In this document: positions 41,687 through 42,447 of the stretch, in pieces
Position numbering within the stretch: position 1 is the stretch's first letter
Layout of the letters: the number at the start of each line of letters is the position of its first letter
Assembly: GCA_014728035.1 (NCBI GenBank)
Contig: WJMJ01000022.1
Coordinates: 1-64,000 of the forward strand
From: Promethearchaeota archaeon
GTDB taxonomy: Archaea > Asgardarchaeota > Thorarchaeia > Thorarchaeales > Thorarchaeaceae
Reading direction: 5' to 3'
DNA length: 64,000 nt
Notes under the pieces: generated by a model
The model's database searches: none
Seen by the model: only the letters and a program-made list of their open reading frames with translations
Told to the model about the DNA's origin: nothing
Program-made: the position numbers and the translations under genes

Positions 41687-42036
41687 AATGGCTCTGGAGC
41701 GAAAGCGCAACTGACGGTATCTACAGAATGTAGAAGCTGAGGAAGATCCCGACTATGTGTCGACGCTAGTCCAGCGAGAGCTGGATGGTGAGAACCATGC
41801 TCTGGAAACAGAAACGACACGCCCAGATAGAATATGACAATGATACAGGTCTACCTGTTGAGGATTTATCTGGATACGATGAAACGGTCCATCACTACAT
41901 AGCAATTCCAAGAATAGGTTGATGATTTGTCGACATGAAACCTAGGGTAGGAAGCTTAGTTAGATGTTGCAAGGAATTCAATGGGTAACCTTGAATTCGG
42001 AACAAAATCGGGGCTACTCTTCGGACCAGAGCCATT
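41687..42036 (+). ncRNA. rnpB: RNase P RNA (archaeal)
   Basis: P1 AATGGCTCTGG/CCAGAGCCATT closes the ends; CR-I GAGGAAGATCCC; ACAGAAACG and GATGAAACGG internal conserved regions; CR-V AACAAAATCGGGGCTA. Confidence 0.92.
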
Positions 42037-42055
42037 TTATAAAAAGAGCGTGTGC

Positions 42056-42160
42056 TCAGGTTGCTTCCAACGCGAGCACTTCGCTTGTAGTTAGGTCACC
42101 GCTCTTGCTAGAGTCTTGGTGAGTGGGAGTTGATAGAATATCTTCAACGCTAGGCTTCAT
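42056..42160 (-). CDS. Micro-ORF C, 34 aa (MKPSVEDILSTPTHQDSSKSGDLTTSEVLALEAT)
   Basis: ATG preceded by AGGAGG that overlaps the end of micro-ORF B. Confidence 0.5.
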   Translation of the reverse strand: MKPSVEDILSTPTHQDSSKSGDLTTSEVLALEAT

Positions 42161-42165
42161 CGATA

Positions 42166-42249
42166 TTACCTCCTGAAGTAGGCATCAGTGATAGCCTTGG
42201 TTGAGGGGGTCTTGGTTGCCTTGATGATCTTGGTCTTGGATACCGCCAT
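42166..42249 (-). CDS. Micro-ORF B, 27 aa (MAVSKTKIIKATKTPSTKAITDAYFRR)
   Basis: ATG preceded by GGAGG overlapping the end of micro-ORF A; similar to A; strong codon bias. Confidence 0.65.
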   Translation of the reverse strand: MAVSKTKIIKATKTPSTKAITDAYFRR

Positions 42250-42255
42250 TGTGTT

Positions 42256-42360
42256 CTACCTCCGGTAGGTGTAAGCAAAGGTCAGAGCCTTGGTGGTCTG
42301 CTTCTTACGGGTGATGTTCTTTGTCTCTGAGTTGGGTCGGGAGTTAATCGCTAACGCCAT
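42256..42360 (-). CDS. Micro-ORF A, 34 aa (MALAINSRPNSETKNITRKKQTTKALTFAYTYRR)
   Basis: ATG 42360 with GTGA upstream and TTATATA box at 42398-42392. Confidence 0.65.
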   Translation of the reverse strand: MALAINSRPNSETKNITRKKQTTKALTFAYTYRR

Positions 42361-42428
42361 GATTGTTCACAAGATTACTACTCAGAATCAGTATATAATG
42401 GAAAGCCACGATTATAGGACACTGGAAG

Positions 42429-42447
42429 TAGTCACAATTTGTGACTA
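42429..42447. promoter_or_regulatory. Perfect palindrome, putative operator between divergent micro-ORF and DsrE promoters
   Basis: TAGTCACAA-T-TTGTGACTA. Confidence 0.5.

Follow-up and report, generated by a model that had tools for sequence, protein, structure and literature searches.

Does the apparently empty interval between the RNase P RNA gene (rnpB) and a dsrE-like gene in the Promethearchaeota archaeon assembly GCA_014728035.1 encode anything, and if so, what might its products do? The window analysed here is the first 64,000 nucleotides of contig WJMJ01000022.1, from a member of the Thorarchaeaceae, and the interval holds three minus-strand open reading frames (ORFs), designated A, B and C, within positions 42360-42056. 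A first-pass annotation had described them as a dedicated peptide cassette with chained translational coupling and probably high expression; its coordinates and translations match ours exactly, and purifying selection, frame-preserving insertions and deletions, the overlap of stop codons with Shine-Dalgarno (SD) sequences, and codon bias all bear the description out. On these grounds the unit is very likely a genuine, self-contained, protein-coding operon for three microproteins. The cassette in the window is one of four gene-converted copies in a regulon, not a single unit tied to rnpB. Small ORFs below annotation cut-offs go largely unseen in Asgard genomes, themselves intensively studied for the origins of eukaryotes.

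Coding evidence, coupling and codon use

ORF A (42256..42360, minus strand) encodes a basic peptide of 34 residues with an isoelectric point (pI) of 11.1 and ends in TAG at 42258-42256. ORF B (42166..42249, minus strand; 27 residues, pI 10.7) is also basic and ends in TAA at 42168-42166, and ORF C (42056..42160, minus strand) encodes an acidic peptide of 34 residues with a pI of 4.3. Family alignments agree with the earlier suggestion that A and B are paralogous. Comparison with a second species of the same genus gives ratios of nonsynonymous to synonymous change (pN/pS) of 0.48 for A, 0.16 for B and 0.35 for C, with variable sites in excess at third positions. All insertions and deletions within the ORFs are multiples of three; the spacer between A and B carries a 1-nt indel.

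Across about 13 genera of the family nucleotide identity falls to 65-78%, and the peptide motifs are kept. The family motif of A is MALAxNxR...KKN...QSTxALxYAYxxxxR and that of B is MALAK...STKAIxxAYFRR, while C has a variable acidic body, rich in Ser, Asp and Glu in its N-terminal part, followed by a nearly invariant C-terminus, (L)(T/S)xxEVLALEAT. All 18 distinct versions of C keep its frame open through the 25-32 unconserved codons; of the other two frames, one is open in 2 of the 18 and the other in none. With a profile of A, matches, always free of internal stops, are obtained in 22 of the 26 family genomes searched, and no match in 124 genomes representing 26 other families of the phylum. 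The cassette is therefore conserved in relatives, a check that the first-pass annotation had proposed, but its adjacency to rnpB is seen only in this genus. Among 1.84 billion representative proteins the A profile matches only 32 clusters, of 29-103 aa, at the C-terminal end, and no fused form of A is present among them. C-like peptides in public data, found in a search with a 40-aa homolog placed first, are unnamed or labelled 'hypothetical protein, Candidatus Thorarchaeota', and all named database relatives are assigned to 'Candidatus Thorarchaeota'. The cassette is restricted to one family of Asgard archaea.

GGAGG sequences, the presumed SD sequences for B and C, are located at 42259..42263 and 42169..42173 on the minus strand, inside the last two Arg codons of A (CGG AGG TAG) and of B (AGG AGG TAA), so that each Arg-Arg-stop doubles as the ribosome-binding site of the next ORF, as had been proposed. 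A and B invariably finish with Arg, and in the copies read its codon beside the stop is AGG, although AGG makes up only 10% of Arg codons genome-wide. The overlap yields GGAGG or GAGGTGA 5-9 nt before the next start, and it is conserved throughout the family. Two small hairpins that had been drawn around these SD sequences are present in the window copy and are absent from other genera.

A 3' stem-loop, GUGCUC-GC-GUUG-GAAG-CAAC-CU-GAGCAC (42052..42079, minus strand), takes in the stop codon of C and the eight codons before it. In an alignment of 23 sequences 95.7% of the cells are paired, compared with 21-48% for slid controls, and two pairs have compensatory changes, such as G-C to A-U in loci L030 and L045. 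Because the stem-loop overlaps the end of C, the EVLALEAT segment is near-invariant even at synonymous sites.

Codon use in A and B is extreme, as first reported: all nine Lys codons are AAG and nine of eleven Thr codons are ACC, against genome values of 37% and 18%. Over Lys, Thr, Asn, Tyr and Ile together, 28 of 31 codons end in C or G. Among 4256 genomic ORFs of at least 90 aa the median of this C/G-ending index is 0.27 and the highest value is 0.74, with the thermosome gene at 0.51, so that A and B exceed every long ORF of the genome in bias. The preference for AAG and AAC is kept in other genera, and C is far less biased. The bias lies in the direction of highly expressed genes and beyond, and expression of A and B is probably high. 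We note that long ORFs on contigs C131, C95 and C153 are unusually rich in C/G-ending codons and occupy the top of the genomic bias ranking; these may derive from contaminating or foreign DNA, and the assembly is rated 8.5% contaminated.

A quite different reading is that the unit acts as a non-coding RNA, sequestering a protein through ACCAAG/GGA repeats, or encodes a single protein by read-through of the TAG that separates A from B. The five occurrences of ACCAAG pointed out earlier are real and compare with 0.2 expected, in the window copy B continues the frame of A past the TAG, and the 3' hairpin is conserved. However, ACCAAG reads in frame as Thr-Lys, in preferred codons, at four of its five occurrences (that in C is out of frame), and the fold of the whole unit is no better than that of shuffled sequences (z = -1.2), the 3' hairpin being its only structured part. 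The earlier proposal of an RNA that titrates a protein by way of CCAAG/GGA motifs is disfavored by the same two observations. Rfam matches only the RNase P RNA within the window. The first-pass annotation had held that nucleotide motifs kept despite frequent frameshifts and stops would favor an RNA, and the opposite is found: frames are preserved and peptides conserved. Non-coding RNA was rejected on account of frame-aware substitutions and peptide motifs that outlast nucleotide divergence. The in-frame relation of A and B, correct for the window copy, is lost through the 1-nt spacer indel in three copies of the congener (L016, L018 and L019), and other copies close A with TAG, TAA or TGA. Since the in-frame TAG is not conserved, read-through or a pyrrolysine fusion was also rejected. 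The comparative data largely refute both forms of this reading, to which we give next to no credence.

Gene-converted copies and the operator regulon

A search of the genome with 408 bases of the unit identifies four cassette copies that are 89-98% identical, one in the window (contig C151), two on C25 and one on C9. The congener has five copies, at 83-84% identity. Fourfold recurrence in the genome, together with conservation through the family, puts the unit far outside what chance would produce. Homology between copies begins at a perfect 19 bp palindrome, TAGTCACAAATTGTGACTA (42429..42447), and ends at a run of five T residues (42041..42045, minus strand), the probable end of transcription. 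Comparison of the flanks shows that at least three loci, including that at rnpB, are positional orthologs between the two species. Cassette identity is nonetheless 88-98% within a genome versus 81-85% between the two congeners. Because copies are more alike within than between genomes despite their orthologous flanks, they evolve in concert, and the pattern indicates homogenization by gene conversion. The unit is a clear case of a protein-coding micro-operon evolving in concert in archaea. A mobile element was considered and rejected, as the ends of the unit showed neither terminal repeats nor target duplications and three of the sites are orthologous between the species.

The palindrome that bounds the unit upstream is presumably the operator of a repressor. 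It is associated with three GTG(A/T/G)C boxes in a 13 bp phase (42405..42435, minus strand), GTGAC at 42435-42431, GTGTC at 42422-42418 and GTGGC at 42409-42405, and all 31 of the units compared, drawn from about 13 genera, have GTG at offsets 0, +13 and +26. Apart from the four cassettes, just three promoters in this genome have the operator pattern. These precede an efflux-type major facilitator superfamily (MFS) transporter gene with a diverged A/B-like upstream ORF (uORF) on contig C8, a gene for a 290-aa membrane protein on C10 that has no match in Pfam, NCBIfam, PHROGs or PADLOC, and a gene for a 411-aa bactofilin-domain protein on C16. A relaxed scan adds just one site, at the promoter of a second MFS paralog. 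Family-wide, the operator is present in 49 of 61 genomes, versus one match for a reversed control pattern, and the sampled sites outside cassettes lie at bactofilin genes (in eight genera), at MFS genes of two unrelated types and at the gene for the membrane protein. One of these MFS types is DHA3, Mef/EntS-like. Several genera have A/B-like ORFs directly upstream of an MFS gene, and loci L043 and L006 have a DHA3-type MFS gene in place of C, translationally coupled to an A-B pair. One genus without cassettes retains the operator on its bactofilin gene, and retains the MFS gene without an operator. Operator, targets and products together define a compact and complete regulon that is amenable to experiment.

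Several further features of the regulon members can be described. The bactofilin-domain protein is about 410-435 aa long with a long N-terminal beta-solenoid-like region; in this genome it is encoded at G000:C16:15748-17075 (L037), and orthologs lie under the same operator at L041, L044, L048, L050, L053, L054, L056 and L060. Given that the operator is present on it even in the cassette-free genus, the bactofilin gene may be the oldest member of the regulon. The membrane protein (290-369 aa), found under the operator at G000:C10:33648-34608 (L036) and on G004:C29 (L057), has an Arg/Lys patch after its acidic N-terminus and is without a Pfam or NCBIfam match. The uORF of the MFS leader on C8 (G000:C8:60590-60700, L012) encodes a diverged, basic, A/B-like peptide, MKMKSPSQ...LYYEYYRRLN, with GGAGG in its last codons, and it connects the stand-alone cassettes with the transporter operons. 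Leaders of 'FFGL'-type MFS genes have two to three direct TGGTCAC repeats, with an inverted GTGACCA 30-40 nt later, just before the start codon (G000:C8:60600-60830, corresponding to L012 ~1600-1830; L052, L049, L006, L005 and L061:1410-1480). This element is present even in a genus without the palindromic operator. The repeats share the half-site of the operator and could be extra sites for the same regulator, or they could form an RNA hairpin with alternative 5' arms.

Peptide properties and possible roles

Libraries and literature provide no direct guide to function. Pfam, NCBIfam, PHROGs and PADLOC have no match to the peptides above noise, profile searches of the PDB gave best E-values of 0.78, none and 0.37, none of them significant, and viral contigs do not match a DNA pattern for the conserved C end (the 3' element). 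No description of the cassette was found in the literature searched, and the first-pass annotation's remark that it has no described equivalent holds for the libraries and literature covered. Several signs point to its importance, among them gene-converted copies, a codon bias above that of any long ORF, strict translational coupling, and a conserved operator common to a cytoskeletal (bactofilin) gene and efflux pumps.

Net charges are +6.5 for A, +5.5 for B and -4.4 for C. All three peptides are hydrophilic, with grand average of hydropathy (GRAVY) values in the range -0.4 to -1.0 (-0.96 for A and -0.39 for B). AlphaFold2 with family alignments predicts a short C-terminal helix, at residues 24-32 of A and 25-32 of C, and the remainder is of low confidence. 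A and B are thus predicted to be mostly disordered with a short C-terminal helix (STKAL/IxxAY...RR), and C to have a disordered body and a helical end. A predicted complex of A, B and C scored 0.08, below the mark; chains of fewer than 30 aa lie outside the calibration of the method, and the score counts neither for nor against an association.

A tentative scenario, which we prefer, casts A and B as basic microproteins, inducible and abundant, that act in bulk on a polyanionic target, with C as an acidic, charge-balancing partner. We guess that the target is a nucleic acid or a membrane surface and that the setting is envelope or efflux stress, or a differentiation program; nucleic-acid or ribosome binding, as suggested in the first-pass annotation, is likewise a guess. 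As to mechanism, a repressor bound at the palindromic operator would hold the whole regulon off, and upon induction an mRNA with a short leader would be very heavily translated. Each ribosome terminating on A, and then on B, would sit on the GGAGG within the Arg-Arg-stop codons and re-initiate 5-6 nt downstream. Such termination-reinitiation would yield the three peptides in about equal amounts, and the hairpin and T-run would end and stabilize the transcript. A more specific version, in which A and B, Lys/Thr-rich and disordered with a Tyr/Arg-rich helical end, together with C, at a fixed 1:1:1 ratio and at very high levels, form a charge-driven coat or condensate on nucleic acid or membrane under one repressor with the bactofilin and the pumps, is rather improbable as stated; if true, it would introduce a new class of bulk-acting archaeal microproteins and an inducible program specific to an Asgard lineage. 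Peptides acting as bulk chromatin-, RNA- or membrane-binding agents, or as exported signals, would be a first for Asgard archaea.

Bulk action by small proteins is familiar from the alpha/beta-type small acid-soluble spore proteins (SASPs), which are 60-75 aa long, monocistronic and sigma-G dependent, have a defined DNA-binding fold and coat DNA in bulk. The cassette resembles these in comprising a multigene family of small condition-specific proteins with copies dispersed around the chromosome, with abundance and bulk action conjectural here. No similarity to SASPs was found in the libraries or the PDB, however, and the cassette differs in being a three-ORF operon of 27-34-aa peptides. MntS of Escherichia coli, a member of the MntR regulon, is similarly small and hydrophilic and shares its repressor with transporter genes (for the cassette the operator is shared and the repressor presumed), but MntS is single-copy and needs no bulk expression, whereas the cassette is multicopy with extreme codon bias.

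Four considerations weigh against bulk action as we have framed it. Family, defence, phage and structure libraries contain no relative of known function, and every functional statement is therefore an inference. No gene for a DNA-binding protein that could be the regulator is present beside any of the four copies, and none emerges from the relaxed operator scan. Part of the conservation of EVLALEAT and of the terminal Arg of A and B may reflect constraint on the RNA (hairpin and SD sequence) instead of peptide function. Finally, co-regulation or co-transcription with MFS genes fits a role in export or regulation at least as well as an intracellular bulk role.

Export, on which A and B would leave the cell whole or C-terminally trimmed through the co-regulated MFS pump, as bacteriocin-like or signalling peptides, with C neutralizing them until then, is in our estimation unlikely. 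It would account for the MFS genes that are headed by the same operator and promoter architecture, and for the A-B pairs coupled to a DHA3-type (Mef/EntS-like) gene where C would otherwise be; moreover, tandem, multicopy, leaderless cationic peptides recall two well-known bacterial arrangements. The psm-alpha operon of Staphylococcus aureus encodes phenol-soluble modulins (PSMs), amphipathic membrane-active helices that leave through the ATP-binding cassette (ABC) pump Pmt, under the repressor PmtR. Like the cassette it has tandem genes for leaderless peptides, 20-45 residues long, on a single short transcript, with very high expression (suggested by codon use for the cassette) and a transporter in the same regulatory circuit under a repressor (presumed for the cassette), but A and B are hydrophilic, basic and mostly disordered, the pumps are MFS proteins, the third peptide is acidic, there is no sequence similarity and the host is an archaeon. 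Leaderless multi-peptide bacteriocins of Bacillota (aureocin A70, enterocin L50 and garvicin KS) are likewise made from two to four paralogous, small, cationic, leaderless peptides encoded back to back. These bacteriocins have hydrophobic cores, adjacent ABC transporter and immunity genes, and fast divergence; the cassette peptides have no hydrophobic core and their motifs are near-invariant across genera, and no such transporter or immunity genes lie beside the four stand-alone copies, the MFS genes sharing the operator and in some genera the operon. The peptides also lack a signal sequence, a double-glycine leader and any hydrophobic or long amphipathic segment, the helix being only about nine residues, and MFS pumps are not known to carry peptides of 3-4 kDa. 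The C-terminal motifs are almost invariant across genera, contrary to the behavior of fast-diverging bacteriocins and pheromones, and the genus that lacks cassettes retains the MFS gene. Somewhat more improbable again is a translated regulatory module, in which A and B are leader-type ORFs whose nascent C-termini and reinitiation control a downstream MFS gene or C, with the stand-alone copies as spin-offs that act in trans or have no peptide function. Conservation is indeed concentrated in the last 12-15 residues before each stop, the SD sequence lies beneath the terminating ribosome, and MFS genes of two unrelated families follow A/B-like ORFs; one family is of the Mef/Tap drug-efflux type, a type whose members in bacteria are under leader-peptide control. 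As with Mef/Erm/Cat leaders, a Mef-like MFS gene is immediately preceded in some genera by short ORFs with conserved C-terminal residues; unlike in those leaders, most cassette copies have no downstream gene, and a ribosome paused at the stop would cover rather than free the SD sequence. The window copy and most others end in a hairpin and T-run terminator, and a downstream gene on the transcript for such a module to control is present only in MFS-linked variants of other genera. The N-terminal MALAxN is kept at the protein level with synonymous variation, and multiple copies, gene conversion and extreme codon optimization point to demand for the product. Amino-acid-sensing leader peptides were rejected, as the Thr/Lys richness is lost in other genera and there is no downstream gene.

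A toxin-antitoxin-like system, with basic, toxic A and B neutralized by an acidic and possibly labile C, would make sense of the opposite charges (+6.5 and +5.5 against -4.4), of production coupled at 1:1:1, and of a unit that is multicopy, lineage-restricted and tightly controlled by an operator. But PADLOC and Pfam are without a match and no toxin or antitoxin fold is recognizable, codon optimization and homogenization are unusual for such loci, A-B-MFS operons lack C altogether, and a regulon with a bactofilin gene and transporters is ill-suited to a selfish module; we consider it very unlikely. Even less probable are precursors of ribosomally synthesized and post-translationally modified peptides (RiPPs) modified in trans, a role that had been raised in the first-pass annotation and that the small, Ser/Thr/Lys-rich peptides with conserved ends and a variable middle might suggest. 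Reading the neighborhoods by eye revealed no radical SAM, YcaO, ATP-grasp or LanM-like gene beside any of the four copies, and the operator targets found are MFS, bactofilin and membrane protein genes only, with no modifying enzyme among them. The peptides contain no Cys, and what is conserved in them is the presumed functional ends, not a leader and core.

Predicted transcript layout and the surroundings of the cassette

The inferred transcription unit occupies window positions 42449-42039 on the minus strand, about 410 bp with sharp boundaries, and consists in order of the palindromic operator, a TATA box, the three chained ORFs, the 3' hairpin and the T-run; the TATA box, stem-loop and T-run listed in the first-pass annotation are all present in the sequence. 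The TATA box is TTATATA (42392..42398, minus strand), and ATTATATACT is almost invariant across the family. A conserved TTGTGAA (42372-42366, minus strand) lies at the presumed start of transcription, which the usual archaeal distance from TATA box to start would place about 8-12 nt before the ATG of A.

The RNase P RNA is encoded on the plus strand at 41695-42028, just 12 nt from the T-run, and the cassette thus converges on it, as the first-pass annotation stated in calling it a stand-alone operon. The adjacency is real here but is confined to this genus, where it concerns only one of the four copies in the regulon, and a functional link to rnpB was rejected on that account. An AT-rich stretch at 42037-42050 (CTCTTTTTATAAAA on the minus strand), with oligo-T on both strands, lies between the end of the cassette and the 3' end of the RNase P RNA, and the same layout is seen in the congener (G001:C12). 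It is probably a bidirectional termination zone common to the cassette and rnpB; this shared stretch excepted, the convergence is incidental.

Read by eye, the neighbors of all four copies are unrelated genes, partly housekeeping. Those in the window are apparently Cbf5, rnpB, a DsrE-like protein and Tsr3, and the other copies apparently adjoin a ribosomal-protein/EF-1alpha region, a PolX-like gene and membrane proteins. A convergent arrangement recurs in two other genera (L004 ~2010-2090 and L028 ~640-720), where the cassette faces a tRNA-like sequence on the opposite strand, recognized by eye from a GGTTCGAATCC-type arm. Cassettes therefore seem often to adjoin stable-RNA genes, rnpB in this genus and tRNA-like sequences in two others.

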